A program made the position numbers and the translations under genes. Below are positions 1,690-45,920 of a DNA stretch of 64,000 bases, in pieces. The stretch's first letter is position 1; each line of letters starts with the position of its first letter. The DNA is from Mobula hypostoma (taxonomy: Eukaryota): NCBI RefSeq assembly GCF_963921235.1, contig NC_086097.1, forward strand, positions 40,240,001-40,304,000. The letters are read 5' to 3'. The notes beneath the pieces are model-generated. The model was not told the DNA's origin. It was given only the letters and a program-made list of their open reading frames with translations, and ran no database searches.

Positions 1690-2640
1690 AGGAGAGGAAT
1701 ATTAGAAAGACTCATTTTCTCTGAATCTTGCTTCTTTAGATGCAACTTTGCAGTTCAAAATGATAATGATAATATAGGCTCTCCCAAATTAGGTAACCTA
1801 GTGCTCTTTTTGATTCTGCAAATTGACATTTTATCTTTTTCTCTGTCCCTTACAGTTTATTTATTTTTGTCTGCCCAACATGCTCTTTGTATGTGTCCTA
1901 CATTATTGCATTTTCTGCACGTTTCAACTTTAAATCTGCATTGGTTCGGTGTATGTGAGCATCTGCCACAAGGGTAATCCAATTTGTTCCACCAGGCAAG
2001 CCTCCATCTAGACACTGCAATTTTGTTCATTCTCAATTTCACTCTTAATTTCATTATTGAGTGCAACTCACTTGCACCTTTGTCTGCTCTTTCCATTGAT
2101 ACAACGATTTCATCTGCTCTTTTAAATGTGAGTTGTACTTCAGTTAGGAGCCGTTTTTGAATGGTTTCTTGTAAGATTCCACAAACTAAATGACCTCTCA
2201 GTGCATCATTTAGCCCATTACCAAACTGGCAATGACCAGACATTCTCTTCAATTCACCCATATACTGTATGCTGAAATGGACTTCCCTTCCTTTTGATCC
2301 TGCTCATGAAGTCTAAAGTATTTTGCAATCAACAATGGTTTTGGTTTCAATTGTTCCTGCATTACTTTCATGATATCAGCAAAACTCATTTTGGCTGGTT
2401 TTTTTGGAGCAATCAAACTTCTAAGCAAACCATATGCCTTTAAACCCAATGCACTCAGCAGAACAGGTACTTGTTTCTCATTGCCTATTTCAATTGCTTT
2501 AAAATACTGCTCAATTAGCTCAGTATGCATATTCAGTTTATCTCTTGTGCAACTGAATGTCTATCTTTCTGATGTAGCCTGTCATTTCTGCTCTTTTTAT
2601 TTATAATTATTATCACCCAGTGCTAACTGTTTATGAACCC
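1690..2640 (-). mobile_element. gag: Ty3/Gypsy LTR retrotransposon gag (frameshifted, 3'-truncated element)
   Basis: ATG at 2585 (MTGYIRKID); ORFs 2249-2530 and 1857-2261 with LRGHLVCG and CCHC knuckle CRKCNNVGHIQRAC. Confidence 0.9.
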
Positions 2641-3859: not shown

Positions 3860-4690
3860 GTGTTAAAGTCTTGTTATGCTTGTCAATGTCAAGGAATACT
3901 ACCAAACACGTCTTTACCTATCCCCCCCGACATTCTGCTTTTCTGCTTTCTGCATGGATTGCTCTCTCCATGATTCCCTTGTCCATTCATCTCTTCCCAC
4001 CAATCTCCCTCCCGGCACTTACCCTTATAAACAGAATAAGTGCTATACCTGCCCATTCACCTCCCTCATCTCCATTCATGGCCTCAAATAGTCCTTCCAG
4101 GTGAGTCAACACTTCACCTGCAATTCTGTTGGGGTCATCTGTGGTATATGGTGCTCCCAAAGTGGCCTCCTCTACATTGGTGAGACCCAAAGTAAATTGG
4201 GGGGGGGGCACTTTTTCAAGCACCTTCATTTCATTCACAACAAGTAGGATTTCCCAAAGACCAACCATTTTAATTCCAATCCCCACATTTGTTCCAACAT
4301 ATCAGTTCATGGCCTCCTCTACTGCCATTATGAGATGACTTCCAGGATGGAGGAGCAACACCTCATATTTTATCTTGATAGTTTCCAACCTGATGGCATG
4401 GACATCAATTTCTCTAAATTTTGATATTTTCTTTTCCTTTCACATTCCCTTTTCTTCCATTCCCCATTCTGGCTCATCTCTTACTTCTCTTCTCCGCAGC
4501 TGTCTAGCATCTCTCCCTGGTGCCCCTCCTCCCTTCCTTTTACCCATGGTCCACTCTCTTCTCCTATCAGATTATATCTTCTTCACCTCCAATTAATTTT
4601 TCCTCCTATCATCTCTCTGCTTCTTACTTCATCCCCCCTTCGTCATCCACCTGACTTCACCTTCTAGCTTGTACTCCTATCCCCACTCTC
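3860..4690 (+). mobile_element. Penelope-like element 3' part (GIY-YIG endonuclease and pyrimidine-rich tail)
   Basis: CYTCPFTS...SFQVSQHFTC...CSQSGLLYIGETQ; MDINFSKF C-terminus; C/T-rich 3' region. Confidence 0.85.
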
Positions 4691-4928
4691 CATTGTGAGC
4701 TTTAAGAGTGTTTTAAGAATATTGTTTGAATTTAAACATGAATTAAATCACTGAAAATAAATGAACCGTGTTTTAAACTCCTTTGTTAGCCATAAGCATC
4801 TTCTCCTTAATGGGCGGGGGGGGGGGGGAACCAAGTGCTCGAATAGTGGATAATGGTAGTTACAATATTGGAATCTCAAAGTTGTATACTGTATACACAC
4901 TTCGATAATAAATGAACCTTTGAACCTT

Positions 4929-5505
4929 TATGAAGCTGATGGTCAAGGTAAAGTTTCGGTATGCCACCCTAAAAAAGATTTTAAAAAAATCAAATTCCTC
5001 CTGTCTACAAACAGGAATCCCTGATTTGAGAAGCCCTCCAGAGGATTTGGATACAATCATGGTGGTGGACAAGCCCCTTATGTGAAATTAGCGATGTTAT
5101 TCTGGTGGCCTTACATGTTGAGTGACTATAAGCAATTTGTTGCATATTGTAAGGAATATCTGGCCTATAATAAAGGAGAGTCCCAAGACCATCTACTATA
5201 AGATAAATAAAAGCAACTGCACCATTGCAGGTGTGGTAAGGTGACTATATTGACCTACTTCCTGTATCCCAAGGCAACCCACCATTTTGGAAACCTAATA
5301 AGTATACTTGTGATAATTGACCTTTGTACAGATATACGTGGTTAGTCTCCATGACAACTTGTAGTCAGACTGCAACCCCGTCACAGCACTCCAAAACTCC
5401 ATGTTCCCATATGCTGACACCCACACCTGCACGTATGCTGACTGAGTGTCTTCCGTTAGTGGTAAAGTCTTTCAAGCCATGTAGCCATGTGTGAACAACA
5501 GGCAC
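4929..5505 (+). pseudogene. pol: Foamy-virus-like integrase, N-terminal domain and first half of the catalytic core
   Basis: With frameshifts: YEADGQGKVSVCHP / QIPPVYKQESLI*EA / NHGGGQAPYVKLAMLFWWPYMLSDYKQFVAYCKEYLAYN / [17 protein letters not shown] / ILVIIDLCT / RYTWLVSMTTCSQTAT / VTALQ. Confidence 0.85.
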
Positions 5506-5507
5506 AG

Positions 5508-6045
5508 ATCAAAGTTCAAAAATTCAAAGTACATTTATTATCAAAGTAGGTATACGGTTTACAACCTTGAGATTCATCTCCTTACAGGCAGCCACAAAAC
5601 AAAGAGAACCCAAATAGAACCCATTGAAACAAAAGAAAACTTGAATACTTAATGTGCAGAGAGAGAAAAAAACAATTCATACAAAGAATAAAAGTAGGCA
5701 AATAGCACTTAGAACTGAAGTTCACAAAAGTGAATTAGTTGCAGGCCACGGCCTCAGTTCAGTAGAGAGACGAGTAAACCTCTTGGGGCAGCAAGCTGAA
5801 GTTCAGTGCAGAAATGAATAAATCTCCAAGCAGTGAGTTGAACACTGGCCTGACACTTGCCTCTGGCGCGGAAATCCTGACCTTTTCAAATTGGCCCAGC
5901 GCTTCAGTGGTCCAAACCTCAGGTTATTCATTGCTCTTGGACCTGGGCTCTGCTTTGCCTTGGGTCTGCCACATTGAATTGCCTCCAAGTATGCTCCAGC
6001 AATGGCCACACCTGGACTCATCCCCTCGAATTGGCCAAACGCGCT
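5508..6045 (-). mobile_element. Non-autonomous non-LTR element with Rex1-type 3' end, inserted in the integrase
   Basis: Begins caaagttcaaaaattcaaagtacatttattatcaaag; the same terminus occurs at about 14503, 54088 and, inverted, at 4865-4928 and about 45890-45920. Confidence 0.65.
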
Positions 6046-6049
6046 TTGC

Positions 6050-6498
6050 TGCATACAAGTGGAGTATAATACTTCATTCCAGCTTCTATCAAGTGGCAAA
6101 GTTGAGTGAAGGAATCGAGAGATTATGTAGGGCTTGGCAAAAGTGATCTACTATAGAGGCAAAATAGGCTACACTTGTCCATAAACAAAGTAGATTACAC
6201 CTCATTTCTTAACATACAATGTCCCCCTAAATACACCCCTGATTGCTAACTCAGGCCAACCATCGCCTACACCAGGGGACTGCAAAAGGAAAAAAAGTTG
6301 CATAAAAATAATTTTGACCCTAGTTTCCAAACTAAGTGGAAACTGCCTTGTCTTGTTACCCAGATTATCAACAATATGACTATGGCAATCAAGACTGGGT
6401 GGAGAAACAAGACTGTAAGTAAAGCTGTCTCCAAAGATAATATCAAACCTGTCCCAGTACGATTTACTCCCCCAGAACGAGTGGTGCTTTTATGTTAG
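6050..6498 (+). pseudogene. pol: Foamy-virus-like integrase, end of core and C-terminal domain
   Basis: SSGKVE*RNREIM*GLAKVI from 6089; PSFQTKWKLPCLVTQIINNMTMAIKTGWRNKTVSKAVSKDNIKP in ORF 6298-6498. Confidence 0.88.
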
Positions 6499-6589
6499 AC
6501 CGGTATATGGGTCCACCACAGAACTCCTACACCCCGACAAGAGGTGGATGTATTGAAAAGATAAAACACATGTTTAGATCTGAAAAGAA

Positions 6590-7255
6590 ATGAAAAACTT
6601 GTTCACTGAGGAACATCTCATTGATACATTGCCCAGGGATAATACATCCAGACTGCATTGTTGTTTACAGAGTAAGGCAGACTCAAACTTCAGGAGGAAA
6701 TGATGCTTTTGCTGTATTTTACTTTTACTATGTATAGTACTGTTAATTTCTGCCTTATTTACTATTTGCTTTCTCACAGACGAAGTTGCATTTAATGTGG
6801 AAATTGTCTCATCTGGCTCAGTCACCCCTAAAGCTTAATGACTCAGAATATTATTAGAGAGGATCTGTGATCAATAATTCTGCTTTAGATATCAATAAAT
6901 AGCCCTGATCTCTTAGTCATATGTGAACTAATACACTGAAACCCTAACCCTTGTCTGTGGCAAATTGATAGCTCCTGTCCACTTAAGTATTTACTCTGAT
7001 GTCATTGCAGATGAAATGAACGTATGGACAGACAAAGAACCACTTGCAGAAATGATTATTAACACCTTAACAAAACTGAAATATTCTAGCCCAGATATTG
7101 AAGGTCAACTAATAGAGGAATCCTTGACTTGCATCCCTTTTGAAGGGATACACTTGAAAGAAAAGTATAGACACTGTTATGTAATTGAATGATCCCACTC
7201 ATGGGAACATGTCTTCGAAATAGTTAGACTGGACCGTTGTGAAAACCCCTATTTT
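6590..7255 (+). pseudogene. env: Foamy-like env: leader peptide with signal/anchor helix and SU N-terminal block
   Basis: RRK*CFCCILLLLCIVLLISALFTICFL...FNVEIVSSGSV (6692-6825); LSIYSDVIADEMNVWTDKEPLAEMIINTLTKL...EKYRHCYVIE*SHSW...LDRCENP (6965-7250). Confidence 0.8.
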
Positions 7256-7284
7256 TTTTAAAGCAGATTTCTCCAGTAAACACA

Positions 7285-7878
7285 TATTATTTCACGAACA
7301 AACTCTTCTCAGGCTTCCAGCTGAGTACAGATATTGATTTTAAATGATGTTTTGATGATGAGCTCTGCCATCTTCATCAGGGATGATGTCTGGGCATGTC
7401 TAGTCCAATGGCATTTAAACCCCATCGTCCATCCTTCCTGATTAGTTAATCCTCATTCAGTCAGGTTTCCTCTGTCCCACCTTGTTTACAATTGAGTGAA
7501 ATCTTTATCTTTATTAAAATTATTTTCCTCTAGTTTTATTTCAATGGCTTCCTTCACCAAGTGGTCCCAAAAGCCATTGAAATAAAACTAGAGGAAAAGA
7601 ATTTTAACAAAGACCAAGGTCTCACTCTAAATAAGAACTGAAATTTGATAGTAAACAAGGTGGGACAGCAGAAACCTGATTAGATGAGGACTAACCAATC
7701 AGGAGGAACAGGTGATGGGGGTATAAATATTACTGCACTAGAAATGCCCAGGCATCACTCCTGATGATGGTGGTAGAGTTTATCATTGAAACATAGGTTA
7801 GAATCGATATCTGTACCCGGCTGGAAGGCCGAGAAGAGTTTATTCATCATATACTCTGGGAAAGCACTAGATCCTTTT
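7285..7878. mobile_element. Penelope-type inverted-repeat (fold-back) element inserted in env
   Basis: About 7295-7550 is an imperfect reverse complement of about 7575-7848 (aactcttctcaggcttccagc versus gctggaaggccgagaagagtt). Confidence 0.75.
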
Positions 7879-7910
7879 TTCATGTCTTATTGCACTTTCC
7901 CTTTTTGGCC

Positions 7911-8235
7911 AAAAAGGTATCTGAACATACTTACTATGAAGAGTTCAGATGTTCCCTTGTTTCCAATTATGGCTACTATTCCAATCCATTGTTAAATGTC
8001 ACAGTAACATAACAATTTTATGCATTTCTAGGTTATGTTCTAAATAGTTCAGTGAAGCCTTTGATTTGGGTTTCGCATGGGGAAGATCAGATGCTAAGAT
8101 CCACTGAAGCAGAACGTAAGATGAAACTAAAATGCTGGTCAACTGAAACTGGTAAATCCAATGGGCTTTTTAGAGATTTTATTCTTAGCGTCTTTTGTAT
8201 CTACCCAGATTTCTTATTTGCCCATAATTAAACAG
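7911..8235 (+). pseudogene. env: Foamy-like env SU middle block
   Basis: About 108 codons in one frame with two stops (about 8010 and 8229): FRCSLVSNYGYY...KLKCWSTETGKSNGLFRDFILSVFCIYPDFLFAHN*T. Confidence 0.8.
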
Positions 8236-8264
8236 TCGTTTAATTATGGGTAAATAATTAAACA

Positions 8265-11200
8265 GACCATAAGATAGAGGAGAAGAATTAGGCCACATGG
8301 CCCGTTGAGTCTGCTCTGCCATTTCATCATGCTGATCCATTTTTCCTCTCAGCCCCAATCTCCTGTCTTATCCCCATATCCTTTCATGCCGTCTCTAATC
8401 AAGAATCTATCACCTCTGCCTTAAGTATACCCAATGACTTGACCTCCACCACTGCTTGTGGCAAAGGACTCACAGATTCACCACTCTCTGGCTAAAGAAA
8501 TTCCTCCTCATTTCTGTTCTAAGAGGATGCCCCTCTATTCTGAGGCTGTGTCCTCTAGTCTTTGACACCCCAGCATATCCTCTCCACATCCACTCTGTTG
8601 AGGCCTTTCAACATTCAATAGGTTTTAATGAGGTCACCCTTCATTTTTCTGAATTCTATTGAGCACAGGTCCAGAGCCTCATATGAAAAGGCTTTCAATC
8701 TTGGAATCATTTTTGTGAACTTCCTTTGAACCCACTCCAATGTCAGCACATTATTCTTAGATAAGTGGCCTACAACTGCTCAGAATACTCCAAGTGAAGC
8801 CTCCCCAATGCTTTATAAAGCCTCACCATTACATCCTTGCTTTTATATTCTAGTCCACTCAAAATGAGTGCTAACATTGCATTTGCCTTCCTCACCGCCT
8901 ACTCAACCTGCAAGTTTGCCTTTAGGGAATCCCGCATGAGGACACTCAAGGCCTTTGCACCTCAGACTTTTGAATTTTCTTTCCATTTAAAAAATAGTCT
9001 ACACTTTTATTTCTTCTACCAAAGTGCATAACTATACACTTTCTGACACTGTATTCCATCTGCCACTGGTTTGCCTATTCTCCTAATCTGTGTAAGTCCA
9101 TAAATTCTCTTTACTTCCTCAAAACTACCTGCTCCTCCACCAATCTTCATATCATTCACAAACCTAGCCACAAAGCCATCAATCCTGTCATGTAAGTCAT
9201 TGACATATTAATGTAAAAAGAAGCGGTGCCAACACAGACCCCTGTGGAACACCAGTGTTCACCAGCAGCCAATCAGAAAAGGCTCCCTGTATTTGTACCT
9301 TTTACCGACTGCCAATCAGTTAAAGCTTTATCAAAGCTAGAATCTCTCCTGTAATACCATAGGTTCTTAACTTGTTAAGCTGCCTCATGTGTGGCACCTT
9401 GTCATCGGCCTTCTGAAAATCCAAGCACAAATGATCTACTAATTCTTCTTTGTCTATCCTGCTTGTTATTTCTTCAAAGTATTCCAATAGATTTGTCAGG
9501 CAAGATTTTTCCTTGAGGAAACCATGCTGACCATGGCCTATTTTGTCATGTGGCTCCAAGTACCCTGAAACTACGTCCTTAACAATTGACTCCAACATTT
9601 TCCCAACTGCTGAGGTCAAACTAATTGGCCTATAAATTTACCTTTTTCTGTCTCTCTTTTCCTGAAGAGTGGAGCGACATTTGCAATTTTCCATCCTCTG
9701 GAACCATGCCAGAATCCAATAATTTGTGAAAGATCATTACTAACATCTCCTGAATCTCTTCAGCCACCTCTTTCAGAACTCTGGGGTATATCCCATCTGG
9801 AACAGCTGGCTTATCTACCTTCAGACATTTCGCTTTCCCAAGAATCTTCTCCCTAGTAATGGCAACTTCATGCATTTTTGTCCCTTGACACTCTCAAACT
9901 TCCATCATACATTTAGTGTCTTCCACTGATGCAAAATACTTATTCAGTTCATCCACCATTTCCTCGTCCTCCATTACTACCTCTCCAGCATAATTTTCTA
10001 GTGGTCCAATATCTACTCTCGCCTTTCTTTTACACTTTATGTATCTGAAGAAACTTCTGGTATCCCTTTAACATTATTGGATAGCTTATATTCATGTTCC
10101 ATCTTTTCCTTCTTAATGACTTTTTAGTTGCTTTCTGTTTCTTTTTAAAAGCTTTCCAATTCTCTAACTTCCCACTAATCTTTGCTCTATTATATACACT
10201 TTCTTTGGTTTTGTGTTGGCCTTGACTTCTTTTATTAGCCATGGTTTTGTCATCTTTCCTTCAGAATACTTCTTCCTCTTTGGGATGTATATATCTTGTG
10301 CCTTCCGAGTTACCGGGAGAAATTTCAGCCATTGCTGCTTTGCTGTCATCCCTGCCAGTGTTCTTTTCCAATCAATTCAGGCCTTTACTCCACTGTAATA
10401 CTGATACATCTGACTAGCTTCCTTTCTCAAATTTCAGTGTGAATTTGATCTTATTATGGTCACTTCACTAAGGGTTCCTTTACTTTAAGCTCTCTAATCA
10501 ATTCTGGTTCATTGCACAACACCCAATTCAGAATAGGGAACCGCTCGTGGGCTGAATCATAAACAGCTCTAAAAAGCCATCTCATAGGCATTCTAGAAAC
10601 TCCCCCCTCTTGGGATCCACTACAAACTTGATTTTCCCAATTTTACTGCATATTAATATCCCCCATGACGATCATAACTTTTGATATGCATTTTGCATCT
10701 CTTGTGATAATTTGTAGGCCATATCTTTACTACTGCTTGGGGGTCTGCATACAACATTGTATCATTTCTTAATGCATGCATGCATTTCTAAATGACAATA
10801 AATGAGGACTGAGAGTTCTCATAATCTAACTCCCATCAGGGGCTTTTACCCTTGAAGTTCCTTAGCTCTACCCACAATGATTCAACACCTTCCAAGCTTT
10901 TGTGACCTCTTTCTAATAATTTGATTTAATCTTTTACCAACGGTACTACGGCACCACCTCTGCCTACCCATCTGTCCTTTCGATATAATATGTATCCTTT
11001 GACATTAAGCTCCTGGCTATGATTCAGTGGTGCCTATATGTCCTACGTGACAATCTGTAACTGTGCTACAAGTTCATCTACTCTATTCCATGTACTGCAT
11101 ACATCCAAATATAACCCCTTTGTTCCTATATCACCTTTCTCGATTTCGTATGCCCTTTACATTTTTGCCCTATTGTCAGACTCTCCTTGCTAGCAGTCTC

Positions 11201-12740
11201 ACTACACATTGCCTCTATTTTTAAACTAACTACCTCATCCTCAGCATTATCACTCCAGTGCCCATCTTCTGCCAAATTAGGTTAAATCTCTGGAACAGAG
11301 CTAGCAAACCTGCCCACAAGGATATTGGAGCAACACACATTAAATGCTAGAGGAACTCAGCAGGCCAGAGAGCATTTATTGAAAAATGTACAGTCAACGT
11401 TTTGGGCCGAAACCCTTTGGCAGGACCAAAACACCAACTGTACTTTTTTCCATGGATGCTGCCTGGCCTGCTGATTTCCTCCAGTATTTTGTGTGTGTTA
11501 CTCAGATATCTAGCATCTGCAGATTTTCTCTTGTTTGCAAGGATATTGGTCCCGTTTGGATTCAGGTGTAATCCATCTCTTTAGTACAGGTCGTACCTCT
11601 CCCAGAAGAGATCTCAATGATAAATAAATATGAACCCCTGCTCTCTGCACAAGTTCCTCAGCCACGCTTTCATCTACCAAATCATCTTTTTCTTACCCTC
11701 ACTGGTACATGGCATCAATCCAGAGATTACCACTTTGGAGGTCCTGTTTTTCAGCTGTCTACCTAGCTCCTTAAAATCTCTGTTCTCCTCACCTTTCCTA
11801 CCTATGCCATTGGTGCCAATATGTACCAAGACTTCTGGCTACTCCCTTGAGAATTCTGCAGACCTGATCTGAGACCCTGGTACCTAGGAGGCAACATAAT
11901 GTACTGTCCGGGTGTCTCTGTTATGCCCACAGAAACTCATCTCTGTCCCTCTAACTATGGAACCTCTTTTCAGCACTGCAGTCCTCTTCATCCCTCTTCT
12001 CTTCTGAGTCACTGCACCAGACTAGGTCACTGTGGCTCCCACCTTGTAAGTTGTCCCCCTCAACAATATCCAAAGTAGTATAACCTATTATTGAGAGAAA
12101 TGGCCGCAGGGATACTCTGCACTGGTTGTGCATTTCTTTTCCTTCTCCTGACAGCCGCCCAGTTACCTGCCTCCTACAAATTAGAGGTGACTATATCTCT
12201 GTAGCTCCTATCACCTCCTCATTCTCCTGTCTGAGCGGAAGGACGTCAAGCTGCAGCTCCAGTTCTTTAATACATTCTCTGAGGAAATGCAGCTCAGTGT
12301 AACTGGTGCAAGTGTGGTTATCCGGAAGACTTGAAGTCTCCCAGAACTCTGACATCTCACACGCAGGACAAAACACTGCTCCTGGAGCCACTCTCACTGC
12401 AGTACTGTGCCCTAACAGATGAGAAATGAAGAATTCAGAAGAAAAATAGAAACTTATGAGATACTTACCTTGCCCAAGGTTGATCTCACCCTAGCCTGAT
12501 TAGCCAAAGCCACTCTAAACACTGGCCCATTCACCACAATGGCCGTTCAAGACTTGCGCTTAAAATATTTTTGTTCACCTTTTCAAATGGATCCTGCTCA
12601 ATGGATCTTGATCAATGGATCCTTCTTCAACCTGCATTTTTTGGAGTCCAACTCCAAAAAACTGACGTGAATTTCTGTCTTTTTAATCTTGACTGTCCAC
12701 CTGATTTAAGAGACAGTGTCTGACGTAATGATGTCAGTGT
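8265..12740 (-). mobile_element. Near full-length degraded CR1 LINE (ORF1 and ORF2) inserted in env
   Basis: 3' tail at 8265; RT motifs QHGFLKEKSCLTNLLEYFEE and DFQKADDKVPH; ORF1 CPACEM...IKELELQLDVL zinc-finger/leucine-zipper region at 12191-12397. Confidence 0.92.
11329..11537. mobile_element. Short Penelope-derived palindromic element with 12-bp TSD
   Basis: caaggatattgg at 11317-11328 and 11538-11549; internal aaatgctagaggaactcagcaggcca versus tggcctgctgatttcctccagtattt. Confidence 0.85.
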
Positions 12741-12749
12741 AAGGTGCCT

Positions 12750-13592
12750 ATTGTTGGTTTGATTGTAATTGAAGTAAAGGGCTGCAGCTTTTGTTAAGCA
12801 CATAAAATGACTCTCACCTGTTTTCTTGACAAAATCCTACTATTTTCAGACAAGTCTTCAATTATTGCTGTGTATTCAGTTGCATGATGTTGTTGTCAAC
12901 AGGCAGAGGTAAAAAAAACAATTTTGCTCTAAACAGTTTTCATGATTTTTAACAAAATATTAGAGTGAAATTGCCTGCATTGACAGTGCACATTCTCACA
13001 ATAACACTGACCTGATCCTTTGGTTCACTCGGAAGGGAGAAATTTCTGATGAAAACATACTGCTATCAGAGGCTCACTCGCTTTTTAAGGTTTATAGAGG
13101 AAATGACTCTTTGGAGTAATTTGATCATTTAATCTATGTTGCATATCTCAAAACAGAAACACAAGTCCAGTTTTAAGGAATGATTTTTGATAGATGCAAC
13201 GAAGAATGTTCCATAAGGACTTGATATTCATTAACAATGACCAGAAGAAACTAAATTAAAATTGAACTTAATCAAATCGCAGTAATATTTCTCTGTATAT
13301 TATGAGAATAACTGAAATGACACAATAAAAAGTGAGAAACACCTCCTTTCACAAGTTTCCTTTCCAGACTCATTTTTCATACTAAACCTTTGACTAGCTT
13401 AACGCTCCAGTTGAAATGATAGCTAAGACTTTTCCAGCTGTTGCAAATTTAGCTTCTGCAGCAGCAAATTCAGTTCCTGGGTGTGTTGGCACTACTTTAA
13501 ATTGGACTTAGAGACGACTTTTTGCAGTTTTGCAGTGGAGAATTCCCTTAGCTATTGGAATTATTGTTTTCATATTCTTTTTGTTGAGATGA
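12750..13592 (+). pseudogene. env: Foamy-like env TM C-terminal part with membrane-spanning domain
   Basis: 13407-13592: PVEMIAKTFPAVANLASAAANSVPGCVGTTLNWT*RRLFAVLQWRIPLAIGIIVFIFFLLR*. The 12750-13400 part is assigned mainly by position. Confidence 0.7.
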
Positions 13593-14502
13593 AGTCTGCA
13601 AGGATGGAAGTGTGGTGACTTTTGTGTTTTGTACAGCAGTTCCACTCCTAAGGCTTCATTAACTTCCATACCTAACCTGCACTACTGTGGGTTTTATCTC
13701 ATATGGTATATACTTCCTCGTACTTGCCTTTTACCTATTCCTCTGGTTCATCCTTAATCCTAGAAGAGTGAAGAGCAGGGGCTGCCCTGATCCTGCTACC
13801 CTTGCAACTCTCCTTTACCTAGTTCTGATCACTAACGTGACACATGGGTATTAACTGGTCTAATAACACAATCCCACAGAAAGATGAGTATTCAAAGATT
13901 ATTTTTTTACTCATGTATTTGGATGTTGCATATTTACTTTGCAACATGGGTAACTTCATATATATGGTCCTTAACATTTTATACCTTGTAAATGCCTTGT
14001 TCATTGCTAATGATGATACTACTCTATCGTGGTTTACTACTTTGACTTTTAAAACCATCTGTCATATACTTTTTATACGTTGGGAAAAGAATTATCAGGA
14101 GGAGAAAGATCATTATCCCTGAGGAAGGCAATAGTCCTGATAGCCTTTTTACCTATTCTGTTGTGATTTCTTCAGAAATGATGAGGTAATCCTAGTACCT
14201 CTAAGGTCAATAAAGTGTTTTATTGTCACAAGGTAGAAATAATTAAATGTGCTTTACTTACTCTTTAGGTACAAGTATATTGTATGTGATACTCCAAGGA
14301 ACACTAAACCTACCAATACTCCTATTCATATTATATCTAATATTACATTTACATTAATAATTTGTAAATGTGGTTGATAAAATCCCATGGTTTGACAGAA
14401 CAGATTGAGTAGTCCTTGCTCAGTTAAGTTTTCTGGGAAAACATACAAGTTCTTATTTTGGTCCAATCCTTAACAAAGTAAAGGGGGAAGAAATGAACAA
14501 TT

Positions 14503-15120
14503 AAAGGTTCAAAGGTTAATTTATCATCAAAGTGTTCAACTCTGAAATTCTTCTTCTCCAGATAGCCACAAAACCAAGAAAGAAAAGAACAGCAGCACGA
14601 TCATCCACCGCCAAACCCTCCCTCCCTGCACGAAAGAAACAAATAAAAATGGAACAGGCCCATCAACCCCCAATCCCCCTCTCCTGCACACACAAAAAAA
14701 CTGAGAAATATTGGTTTAAAAAAAAGAATAGAGAAAACTGTAAGACTGAAAAAAGAAGTCTATAGTCCAAGTCCATTCCCTCTCTAGTAGCAGAGTGATC
14801 CTACCAGCGATCAAAAGGCAGTCTCCCCTCTCCAGAAGCAGAACGATCCCACCAGAGATCAAAAGGCAGGCAGCCAGCGCTCACCCTTTGCAATCACCTC
14901 AATTGTTTCAATCTCCCTCGTCACTTTAATAAGCGAACAGTGGAAGCTTTAATCAGCAAAATGGAGTCGAACATCGGCTCGCACCTCATATCACATGAGG
15001 TTTGTGCTCGCTGGCTCTGTCTCCTGGAATCCTCTCAGAGACTGTAGAGCGCTGAAACACCCAAAAGATCTCCAAACTGCAAATCGCAGGCTCCAACAGT
15101 CCAAAATCCCTTTCAATTAT
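14503..15120 (-). mobile_element. Non-autonomous non-LTR element with Rex1-type 3' end
   Basis: aaggttcaaaggttaatttatcatcaaagtg terminus shared with the 5508 copy. Confidence 0.6.
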
Positions 15121-15982
15121 ATGCAGAGTTCAGCATCACGAATATAGAGAGAAACTTGTATAGATGGTATGGTTGGTATGAGAATATTAAGGTACAACAG
15201 AGCAATGTGTGATCGCTCCAAGGGAGTGATATAACCACATCTTATGTTGTGATGTTCTTTTCTGGGAGCTTAGAATTAAAGGTATAGACAATTCTCTACA
15301 GGAGAACAGTACTCTTCCTGACTTTTGTGAATGTTTTTATGCATATCATTATATAGTGGAATTGTGTAGCTGATTGAGATAATTAAAATGTAAGATTACT
15401 AATCTTAAGGTAAAGAAGACAGCAGTACACAGTCAGTAATTTGTTTACAAGACTTGTTTTCAGGAAACTTGAGCAAAGTTATGCATCATATCAAAAGCAA
15501 ACCCATGTGAAAGAGATGAACTATCCTCATTTTATTGACAGACATGCCAGCAGACCTGATAAGCTAATGGTGGCAGAGACAGTAATTAGTACTTACAACA
15601 AGAAAATGCCAAGAACTGTATGTGGGAAAGAAGATTTTAAAGATTGACTGATATGGGCTAATAATATGGGCATTGATACATTGTTATTGCGTGTTTATAG
15701 AAGATTATTTTAGTAACGTTCCTTTGAGGTTTGGGAAATTTGTGCAGCAGAGATTGAGGAAATGAGAACTCTAAAGAAAAAATCATACAGGAACCCATAC
15801 TTTGGGCAATGCTTGATGCGTGGTTTGAGCATCAGAATGAAGGGAACCTTTTCTAGCACTGGTAACCTACTGGAATGGATGAAGAAGTGACAGTCAGTTC
15901 CCAAGAGGTGTGTTGACAGGTCTTGATATCGAAGTGATATCGGTAGCAAGAAGGTGGATTAGAAATCTTCACTTAGCAAGGT

Positions 15983-15995
15983 GGGGGGAGGGGGA
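15983..15995 (+). other. Candidate 3' polypurine tract of the provirus
   Basis: ggggggaggggga followed by tatgg (possibly decayed TGTGG), about 2.4 kb downstream of env. Confidence 0.3.
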
Positions 15996-18218
15996 TATGG
16001 TAAATATTCACTCCTTGGATACTTTGCTAACCTTGCTTTCGAAACACAGCATCTTTTAAAGTGGAACAGTTGAAAGTAAACTTCCAACTAACAATTTATT
16101 TAACTTCTAATTGTAAATGAAAGCCAGCCTACAGTTCTTAAAATGTGAATGAAAAGTATTCTTGAAAGAACAGCTTTGCAAATAGGCTCAGTATTTTGAA
16201 GACACTCTGTCTCTAAGAAGTCACTGTAGCTGCTTAATTATTGCTCGAGTAGAGTATGGGATAATGAGTTCGTTGATTTGGGTTATTTTAGGGCAGACAG
16301 GCTAACTCTTAAGTTGCTTAGCTCAAGGAAGCTCATAGAACATGTATAATATAATTTAGCATATCAATTACTGATGTGTTTATAGTTTGAAAGGTTTATG
16401 TACTCAAAGAAGTTAGCTTTACAGCATTAATACCAAGATCTATGTCCCCAAATGATGCTTTTAAACCATGTGTTGAAAGGATATCTGAGGAAATATCACA
16501 TGCTTATGAAGTCTCTCAAGTGGCTGAAAAGGGGTAGAAACATAGAGAGCACTTCAGGCTTGTTAGGAATTGAGCAAGCAACATCAAGAAACATGAAAGA
16601 ACTAGAATCCATTCATCCAGCTTTGGTTTCTGTCACAGGCACTTGTTAGTATGCATCTTTTGTATATCTTTTTAGATTACAGGAATTGTACTTGTTTTGG
16701 GAATCCTTTGTCCTTTTCGTGTTATCCTTTCTGTTTAAGGAATGCTTAATGCTTTAGATTTTGGAAATGGTTTGTGTTATAGAAATGATTTGTATTTTGG
16801 AAATGTTTTATAATGTTTCAAGTTTCAAGATAATAATTTGATAATTCAAGATAAGATAGAAATCCTCTGAGTTTTAAAAGTGTTTCAAGAATGCTGTTTG
16901 GATTTTATCATGTACCGCTGAAATTAAACGAATTGTGTTTTAAATTACTTTGTTACCTGGAAGCTTTTTCTCCTTCCTGGGGAAAGGGGACCCACTGCTT
17001 GAATACAGCTAAACTCAGCGTGGAGAATCAATAGGGAAGTAAATTAGTCTTTGAAGATTGGGTAGTTACTGTATAATCTCCCTTTAGTAAGAGTACTTGT
17101 GGCTATTTACTGTATATCCGATAGGGCTTAAAATCTTCATTTGGGTTTAAAACTTCACGGTCAGCAAGCCCAATACCATCATAATCAAATGACTTTTGGC
17201 GTGGATACCTAAGTACCTATTACAGAAAGTGGCTTCGGATATTATTGGATTTCATGATAATGAGGTTTGACAATTTATTTGCATCAGAATCCTATTTAGC
17301 AAATAAGTTAAATTCACTTATATTAAATTCCTTGAGCCAGCACTGAAAACACGATCCTGTGGTTAATTGAGATTTTCATATTGATGGTGGCTTTTGATCT
17401 TTTTATTCAGTACCTAATATATAAGTTGCACAGTGCACTTATAAACATGAATAACAGTACAATCTTTAATTACGAATGAGACCACTTGGGAAATTAGATT
17501 TTCATGTTGATGTGTCAGTTTTTTTAGTGATTAAGTGGTTAATTGCTTTACAGCTGAAAAGACATCTGTGTTTTTGGGAGCTGGTGCTGAAGTTAATCAA
17601 AGCAAGACTGGAGGCCACACATATTCTTACTACAGGAATGATTCTACTGTTAGAACAGATCAGTGGTGGTTTTTGAAGAGACCTTCTTTTCTACATCTCT
17701 TAAGATAAATGTAATTAATATGCTTAGTGGTCTTGGGTGCTGTCTTGAAAATTTAATTAAATATTGAACAATTAAAAATTAATATTTCTCCTGCACCTGC
17801 TTTTTGTTTTTCTTTATCCCTTTTGATCTCTATGTAGTCACATTAGTGATTTAGTAAACATTTACCTTCTTGATCGATTAGGTACAAGTTATATAAAGAT
17901 GAGGAATATACTCAAAGACTCTGCAGTTGTGATTTTTTTTGTTTCTGTTGAATCCTTCTGTAATATATTTTGAAAACTATCTGGAACAGTGTTTGAATAT
18001 GTGTGCCAGGGCCAAACTAATTTCTGTACCATTCAAACATTAGCACAGGTTTTGCAATCTTCCTGAGACTATGGGCTTGATGATAAAATTACAACTATTG
18101 CCCATAACCTCAGAATAAGAAGGTGGCCATCTCCTTCAATATTTGGATTCCCATGATGACTTCAGATAAGGAATTGCCACCCTATTGAAGATGAAAGGTC
18201 AACAGATATGAGTCCAAG

Positions 18219-18837
18219 TTAGACACATCAAAGTTGCTGGTGAACGCAGCAGGCCAGGCAGCATCTCTAGGAAGAGGTACAGTCGACGTTTCAGGCCAAG
18301 ACCCTGCGTCAGGACGAACTGAAGGAAAAGTGAGTAAGAGATTTGAAAGTGGGAGGGGGAGGGGGAGATCCAAAATGATAGGAGAACATCGACTTCTCTA
18401 ACTTCCGCTAATGCCCCACCTCCCGCTTGTACCCCATCTGTTACTTACTTTTATAAACATTCTTTCTCTCACTCTCCTTTTTCTCCCTCTGTCCCTCTGA
18501 ATATACCCCTTGCCCATCCTCTGGGTTCCACCCCCCCCCACTTGTCTTTCTTCCCGGACCTCCTGTCCCATGATCCTCTCATATCCCCTTTGCCAATCAC
18601 CTGTCCAGCTCTTGGCTCCATCCCTCCCCCTCCTGTCTTCTCCTATCATTTTGGATCTCCCCCTCCCCCTCCCACTTTCAAATCTCTTACTAACTCTTCC
18701 TTCAGTTAGTCCTGATGAAGGGTCTTGGCCCGAAACGTCGACTGTACCTCTTCCTAGAGATGCTGCCTGGCCTGCTCCATTCACCAGCAACTTTGATGTG
18801 TGTTGCTTGAATTTCCAGCATCTGCAGAATTCCTGTT
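18219..18837 (+). mobile_element. Young Penelope-like 3' fragment with inverted terminal duplication and TSD
   Basis: 18222-18387 is a near-perfect reverse complement of about 18637-18803; tgagtccaag flanks at 18209-18218 and 18838-18847. Confidence 0.9.
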
Positions 18838-45210: not shown

Positions 45211-45920
45211 CCTCGTGGTAAGAGGGCTGCAGGCTGGTGCACAAGCAGATATTTGACCCCATTTTGCCTGTTATAGCTTCCATTGTTCACTAATTAATGC
45301 AACAAAGGGGATTCAAACATCAATGCGAGTGCTGAAGTTTGGAGATGGTTCAGATGTTCTGACACTCTACAGTCTCTGAGAGGATTCTGGGAAGCAGAGG
45401 TAGTGTGCACAAACCTCGTACTGGTCAGGCTGCAGGATGGGGCACAAGCTAATGCTTGGCACCATTTTGCCAATTAAGGCGATAAAAACATTGTACCGGA
45501 GAGGGGAGAGCCTGCCACTGCACCTAGAGAGCGTTGCACAGGTTTATTCTGTGTTTTGGATGCGGACTTGGACTATAAAATTTTTTTTGTTCAATATTAT
45601 AGTTTTTATATTCTATGTATTTTCACCCAATCTTCTCATTGTTTTTTCTGCTAGGAGGGGAATTTGCGGGTTGATGTGTCCGTATTTTTGTGCAGGAGGA
45701 GGGATTTAGGGGTCGATGTGTCATTTTGTTTGTTTTTTGTGCAGGAGGAGGGACTTGGGGGTTAACGTGCCTGTTCCATTTTAGTTTGTTTTTATTTTGT
45801 GGGGAGGTGGGCTTTAGGGGTTGATGATCGTGCTGCCTTTCTTGGTTTCATGGCTACCCAGAGAACTGAAGAATTTCAGCGTGGTGTACTTTGATAATGA
45901 AGTAAACCTTTGAACCTTTT
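45210..45920 (+). mobile_element. Non-autonomous element with Rex1-type tail and internal repeats
   Basis: Ends tactttgataatgaagtaaacctttgaacc; repeated tttttgtgcaggaggaggga units; 45381-45407 duplicates 44353-44379. Confidence 0.55.

Follow-up and report, generated by a model that had tools for sequence, protein, structure and literature searches.

A probable remnant of a foamy-type envelope gene in a multi-copy endogenous retrovirus family of Mobula hypostoma

The DNA analysed in this study (the window) is a stretch of 64,000 nucleotides from Mobula hypostoma (contig NC_086097.1, positions 40,240,001 to 40,304,000 of the forward strand), and it contains a damaged copy of an endogenous retrovirus (ERV). 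The comparison of the window with 16 sister copies of this element using blastn indicated that the copy spans window positions 4929 to ~17200 and is broken up by four interruptions (Table 1). Directly behind its foamy-like integrase lies what remains of the envelope gene, env. What is left at window positions 6422-8239 is very probably the 5' half, now decayed, of env from a class III, foamy-virus-like ERV. It would consist of a leader-like signal-anchor segment and the N-terminal half of the surface subunit (SU), in which the receptor-binding domain (RBD) begins. The remnant would have no function today.

The SU part of the window copy consists of three blocks that had been noticed in the first-pass annotation of this DNA, and all the strings quoted there were found on the + strand. 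Block 1 is formed by SIYSDVIADEMNV at 6986-7024 and LAEMII at 7043-7060. Block 2 begins with YRHCYVIE at 7166-7189 (the cysteine of its HCY is encoded at 7175-7177), continues through an in-frame TGA at 7190-7192 and a W at 7202-7204, and ends with LDRCENP at 7229-7249. Block 3, which is read in frame 0 at 8136-8234, consists of WSTETGKSNGLFRDFILSVFCIYPDFLFAHN, a stop and T. Besides the TGA in block 2, the SU frames of the window are stopped at 7259-7261 (frame 2) and at 8010-8012 and 8229-8231 (frame 0). A further foamy-type motif, which reads N-I-T, ILCISRLCSK, stop and F, was found at 8006-8053 (+, frame 2), with its cysteine at 8021-8023. It had been missed earlier because its frame differs from that of block 3 in most copies, the window included.

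The sister copies were searched with the foamy Env gp130 profile of Pfam (Foamy_virus_ENV, PF03408). For this, they were written as single-frame read-through rows, with the stops given as X. The profile was matched by 12 of the 45 rows at E <= 0.1, and no other Pfam family was matched by more than one row. As a control, these 45 stretches of DNA were also translated in both remaining frames and from the reverse strand, and none of the 135 resulting translations matched PF03408. An itemised run gave matches for 12 of the 29 env rows at E <= 0.5. The row L024:1302-1916 reached 27.4 bits, compared with the Pfam cut-off of 27, over profile positions 302-406, and was the sole row of the 45 at the cut-off. 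The row L046:6333-6653 scored 16.2 bits over profile positions 169-252, that is, over blocks 1 and 2 up to the E-H-C-E-K cysteine. The PF03408 matches are collinear, with blocks 1-2 on profile positions 166-252 and block 3 together with its flank on 302-420, in the order and with the spacing of foamy SU.

The same profile was matched by 7 of the 89 open reading frames (ORFs) taken from the three forward frames of 16 copies. Block 3 accounts for six of these matches (profile 338-396, E 4.6e-05 to 0.074) and block 1 for the seventh (169-207, E 0.21). When the entire 3.48-Gb genome was scanned in six frames, PF03408 produced six weak matches, the best at E 0.0145, while 14 control genomes gave none, and five of the six fall on the equivalent of block 3 in the family. 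Thus, similarity to the foamy Env profile was found in the sister copies, with nothing scoring better, and the window copy itself was negative. The pairings of the three blocks with foamy Env that had been proposed by eye were all reproduced by the HMMER alignments of sister copies, the N-x-T being placed on N390 and the HCY on C235.

A weak PF03408 match at L004 (G000:C55:30670919-30671086, -) covers profile positions 761-816 in the transmembrane (TM) subunit region with an E-value of 0.4. This locus has no DNA similarity to the family, and the match may be due to chance or may be a trace of another foamy-like element.

The L024 and L046 rows were also compared with 177,635 sequences of the PDB. 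At E <= 10, the L024 row gave three matches, all of them foamy gp130: 8aez/8aic, the RBD of simian foamy virus (SFV; E 0.0098), 8rm1 (E 0.016) and 8rm0 (E 0.045). The top match of the L046 row was likewise foamy gp130 (8rm1_A), with an E-value of 0.77 that is not significant alone. The alignments to 8rm1 and 8aez are consistent with the collinear order of the profile matches.

These alignments allowed individual residues of the RBD to be followed. According to PMC9988990, the crystallised SFV RBD construct comprises Env 218-552, the glycosylation site N8 (N390) is the only one in SU to be strictly conserved among foamy viruses, and the disulfide DS2 pairs C235 with C318. The N of the family motif A-L-N-x-T aligns with residue 173 of the 8aez chain, which is N390 (N8). 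This agrees with the position at which the first-pass annotation had seen the conserved N-x-T/S glycosylation site; the window copy has N, stop, T there (8226-8234). In the L024 alignment, the equivalent of the motif at 8006-8053 lies against the SFV segment containing C318 and LYSKW, and the cysteine of its F-C-I-S aligns with residue 101, which is C318. The cysteine of H-C-Y aligns with C235 in the L046 alignment, given the 91-residue offset between 8rm1 and 8aez. Both partners of DS2 are therefore aligned, yet they lie in different frames in most copies. A further cysteine of the family, in D-Y-C-I-Y, aligns with the SFV cysteine at 8aez chain position 163. Meanwhile, the equivalent of C228, a partner in DS1, is absent in our reading of the L046 alignment.

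A number of results weigh against a foamy-type env. The read-throughs of the window copy (blocks 1-2, block 3, 6938-7255 and 7896-8240) gave no PF03408 match at E <= 0.5 to 1 and stayed below the Pfam gathering cut-off of 27 bits for this profile. The SU read-throughs of the window gave no Pfam match at E <= 0.5, its ORFs gave no foamy Env match in Pfam, and its block 3 gave no PDB match at E <= 10. In the family, one row barely reaches the cut-off and the scores are mostly 10-23 bits; the matches of the sister copies are not independent, as all come from one ancestor; and the FC..SKW motif and block 3 are in different frames in most copies. Searches with a profile built from the 45 rows of the family detected no foamy Env in the PDB, and among 1.84 billion representative proteins no match reached E <= 0.001. 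Foldseek returned 53 rows at E <= 10 when an env model was compared with the PDB; none of them had E <= 0.001 and none was a foamy Env. The PF03408 search gave no match over the leader-like part (profile positions 1-126). Downstream of SU, none of the 81 ORFs examined for a TM (fusion) subunit matched PF03408, and the PDB search with a read-through of that region gave no foamy match; the remaining SU and the TM subunit may have been deleted, replaced or decayed past detection. It should be noted that the model used in Foldseek, obtained with AlphaFold2 from the env alignment (mean predicted local distance difference test score, pLDDT, 55.4; predicted template modelling score, pTM, 0.33), was too poor to count for or against any reading. 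A word-indexed protein collection gave nothing for env ('longer' and 'near' lengths) or for an integrase piece.

The low scores, the negative window copy and the family profile lacking a foamy Env match, together with the closure of all three frames near position 6924 in nearly all copies, fit an element that is foamy-like by pol and resembles foamy viruses in env through a short chance or convergent motif, the region being a non-homologous env, an accessory gene or non-coding DNA. We regard this as improbable. Against it stand two separate collinear matches with matching spacing, and the best row found nothing in the PDB except foamy gp130. The N8 sequon and both DS2 cysteines fall into place in the alignments, the control frames stayed empty, and five of the six best matches in the genome converge on block 3. 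For the window copy alone, the env resemblance does not go beyond chance. At the level of the family, however, it does, and the reading of the blocks as a foamy-type SU remnant is supported there by the agreement of profile, structure and residue alignments.

The segment ahead of SU has to be judged separately. The pol stop of the window copy is at 6496-6498, and downstream of it a basic patch, SNFRRK, is encoded in frame 2 at 6686-6700. A stop at 6701-6703 parts this patch from a run of 24 hydrophobic residues, CFCCILLLLCIVLLISALFTICFL, at 6704-6775 in the same frame. The frame has further stops at 6554, 6575 and 6581 and is closed by TAA TGA at 6836-6841, a stop triplet common to 25 of 29 copies. 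The hydrophobic helix and its frame are kept in position in all the sister copies read, and the basic patch is conserved as well. The basic patch and the hydrophobic helix of about 24 residues after the pol end, both described in the first-pass annotation, are thus present, and their putative identity as a foamy leader peptide is supported by position, topology and spacing only.

Alternatively, what lies here between pol and SU might be a small membrane ORF of its own or a hydrophobic run that arose by chance. The closure of its frame in most copies with SU lying in another frame, the empty profile positions 1-126 and the weak matches of hydrophobic runs to unrelated membrane families (Pfam, 89 ORFs) all speak for such an origin, which we nevertheless think rather unlikely. 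The position of the segment is conserved among the copies, and it follows the end of pol in the way a foamy env start does. It lies ~78 residues ahead of block 1, and the comparable spacing in foamy viruses is ~88 residues. The foamy leader likewise has a basic cytoplasmic side with a signal-anchor after it. The segment is accordingly read here as a putative leader peptide on the basis of its position, topology, spacing and the conservation of its helix across the copies read, with no profile match.

The classification of the element was examined through Pol. All five PDB matches of the RNase H piece of copy L049 at E <= 1 are Pr125Pol (7o0g, 7o24), RNase H (2lsn) and peptidase A9/reverse transcriptase (RT)/RNase H (7kse, 7ksf), with E-values from 4.9e-12 to 2.5e-07; judging by the entry names, we take them to be foamy virus proteins. 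Apart from two gyrase rows at E 0.36, the integrase pieces of the copies matched in the PDB only the integrase of prototype foamy virus (PFV; E 5.3e-06 and 2.3e-04), in an alignment that takes in its N-terminal extension domain. The SH3_11 domain was found in copy L042 with 33.5 bits, compared with a cut-off of 25. As far as these alignments tell, the Pol of the family is closest to foamy virus Pol among solved structures, a one-sided test in that ERV-L and lokiretrovirus proteins are not among these structures. Env had earlier been put forward as the strongest evidence for a foamy rather than a loki- or ERV-L-like element. That ranking has to be reversed, as the evidence from Pol is stronger (RNase H, E 4.9e-12).

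Nothing was found in favour of a lokiretrovirus-like or ERV-L-like element with an F-type envelope or none, and we consider such an element highly improbable. The Pfam scans of 89, 85, 45 and 39 proteins detected no F-type family, and neither a paramyxovirus-type F nor a host protein family, the alternatives named at the outset, appeared in any scan. The SU blocks match foamy SU, and within the limits of the one-sided test RNase H and integrase match foamy proteins only. Lokiretroviruses, as described in PMC7947760, are also ERVs of non-mammalian vertebrates with an env, but the family studied here has no F-type match and its SU is of the foamy type. An F-like TM subunit would not be discriminating because the foamy fusion subunit itself resembles paramyxovirus F, according to PMC11468914.

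The size and age of the family were estimated from genome searches. DNA searches of the 3.48-Gb genome with two env pieces gave at least 41 matches each at 73-81% identity, with the best 40 of 257 and the best 40 of 163 candidates scored. Protein searches with the read-throughs gave at least 151 and at least 150 matches, with the best 150 of 510 and the best 150 of 480 candidates scored, and nearly all of the matches contain stops. The mean pairwise p-distance is 0.221 (standard deviation 0.017, range 0.167-0.273, 428 pairs of copies) and the Kimura two-parameter (K2P) distance is 0.267; the window copy is average among the copies, at 0.221. These values describe a star-like burst with ~0.13 substitutions per site per lineage, which at vertebrate neutral rates would correspond to tens to more than 100 million years.

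The TGA just before SU (6924-6926) is common to 28 of 30 copies. The frame-by-frame reading of the alignment showed that near 6924 every frame is stopped within ~45 nt in the aligned copies, and every copy examined has several stops. Given the shared env stops and the star-like divergence, env would already have been broken in the progenitor of these copies, and the family would therefore have spread within the genome, through either retrotransposition or complementation in trans. Intragenomic spread is the usual route to high ERV copy numbers. In the infectious ancestor, env probably encoded a precursor of the gp130 type, made up of SU, TM and a type II leader peptide. Once the virus was endogenous, a copy in which env was already interrupted would have multiplied by either of these two means, and the window copy would afterwards have been 5'-truncated and struck by at least four further transposon insertions. 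Two lines of the family analysis were discarded. An apparent open frame of 795 aa at C91:51.8 Mb proved to be a RT ORF of a long interspersed nuclear element (LINE) running into the leader region, and the tracing of frames by stop density on a reference copy over-switched frames and was not used for conclusions.

The coordinates of the window copy and of the sequences inserted into it are given in Table 1.

Table 1. Parts of the endogenous retrovirus copy in the window and the insertions that interrupt it
Feature	Position	Strand	Evidence or remark
Integrase, N-terminal part (extension domain and zinc-binding HHCC)	4929-5506	+	Integrase_H2C2, 25.8 bits on 5025-5201
Unclassified repeat inserted inside integrase	5507-6050		Sister copies (e.g. 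L044) join 5506 directly to 6051
Integrase, C-terminal part to pol stop (ORF 6250-6498)	6051-6498	+	Window match to SH3_11 (retroviral integrase C-terminal SH3), E 0.061
Leader-peptide-like frame overlapping the pol end (frame 2)	6422-6841	+	Read-through; same frame and helix in sister copies
Linker from the leader-like frame to SU (frame 0), ending in TGA 6924-6926	6834-6926	+	DNA alignments of copies
SU blocks 1 and 2 (frame 2)	6932-7261	+	Read-through; homologous row L046 matches PF03408
586-bp insertion splitting SU between blocks 2 and 3	7296-7881		Missing from sister copies
SU continued, including block 3	7882-8239	+	Aligns with block-3 rows of other copies, which match PF03408 and SFV gp130
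LINE of 4.6 kb cutting env	8240-12846	-	RVT_1, 33.7 bits on 9320-9637
Continuation of the element: family-conserved ORF pieces, hydrophobic stretches at ~13660-13850	12847-14503	+	blastn to copies
Another inserted repeat	14504-15113		Copies (e.g. L034) join 14503 to 15114
Element's 3' part, which may hold an accessory region and a long terminal repeat (LTR)	15114-17200	+	Sister-copy coverage stops near 17200

The homology of the window copy to the family begins abruptly at 4929-4939, inside the integrase, as seen by blastn to the sister copies, and the window copy is therefore 5'-truncated. The self-comparison of window positions 4401-5000 with 15001-18500 gave no match that would reveal a pair of LTRs. 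Upstream of the truncation point, positions 4694-4851 resemble, via copy L005, the 3' terminal region of the family (16852-17181) and may be an LTR fragment. Still further upstream, at 1857-2560 (-), lie gag-like ORFs that belong to another LTR retroelement; their zinc knuckle (zf-CCHC) scored 19.1 bits, which is below the cut-off.

The repeat inside the integrase has just short partial matches elsewhere. The LINE that cuts env is spanned by the sister copies with ~230 bp between window positions 8239 and 12847 (blastn), and RT ORFs related to it adjoin several sister copies, an example being the 702-aa ORF at L047:2521-4629. The repeat inserted at 14504 has a second, inverted copy on the other strand at window positions 45333-45918, with 75-78% identity.

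The sequence that splits SU had been called a Penelope insertion in the first-pass annotation. That it is a genuine insertion is clear from its flanks, which are joined directly in 15 of the 16 sister copies used for comparison; the Penelope label is plausible and has no confirmation from a profile. Structurally, the insertion is an inverted dimer whose unit is ~310 bp long; over 558 of the 586 bases it matches its reverse complement at 74.6%. The unit is very abundant, with 5918 first-look candidates genome-wide. Single units are 84-88% identical and look much younger than the ERV family. In locus L049, the unit abuts an ORF with what we assume to be a GIY-YIG-like motif, a hallmark of Penelope-like elements, and the Pfam search with such ORFs gave no match. 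An ORF in which we presume the same motif, likewise with no Pfam match, lies at window positions 3987-4420 (+), and similar ones were seen at L035:5511-5843 and L049:8159-8395. The insertion is thus probably the tail of a Penelope-like element, a plausible assignment that no profile confirms.

The family env can be set beside the systems already described. It resembles foamy Env gp130 (PF03408) in its place behind pol, in the signal-anchor-like segment ahead of SU and in the collinear SU motifs. It differs from gp130 in its weak identity, in the distribution of its motifs over two frames and in its many stops; in the family, neither the RBD past approximately profile position 420 nor the furin sites nor any of the TM subunit is detectable. 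According to PMC5512871, the known hosts of foamy-like ERVs include mammals, reptiles, amphibians, coelacanth, ray-finned fishes, sharks and jawless fishes; the gag, pol and env of a newt element resemble those of SFV, and some foamy-like ERVs (FLERVs) of fishes and amphibians have an env recognisably similar to that of SFV. From the descriptions in the same text, NviFLERV, CoeEFV and AciFLERV are comparable to the family studied here, which is also an ancient, defective, multi-copy class III ERV with a foamy-like pol. For ghostshark ERV-Spuma, PMC10699275 and PMC5512871 report no detectable Env domain, or no gene besides pol. The family shares with the ERV-Spuma elements of sharks and jawless fishes, as these sources present them, a foamy-like character established by Pol; unlike in the ghostshark reports, a remnant of Env SU is detectable here.

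It is possible, and we propose it tentatively, that the family is the first case in which a foamy-type Env SU can be recognised in a basal-vertebrate foamy-like ERV lineage where published surveys found pol only, with elements of the lower subdomain of the RBD, N8 and DS2. The practical value is limited, with about half of SU recognisable and no TM subunit found, and the restriction to the N-terminal part of SU limits conclusions on the evolution of the RBD.

Foamy-like ERVs serve to date the origin of retroviruses, and their env is mostly undetected outside tetrapods, coelacanth and some ray-finned fishes. A family-level scan of read-through frames with off-frame controls can recover env where single copies fail. 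That a very decayed, high-copy family still shows the N8 sequon together with the cysteines of DS2 and collinear helices suggests that these features of the RBD are ancient. The finding would carry added weight if no foamy Env has been seen before in the host lineage. If the proposal is true, the core fold of the foamy RBD, the buried N8 glycan and DS2 would predate the split of the host lineage from tetrapods, and the hundreds of copies would provide a data set for the evolution of the RBD over several hundred million years.

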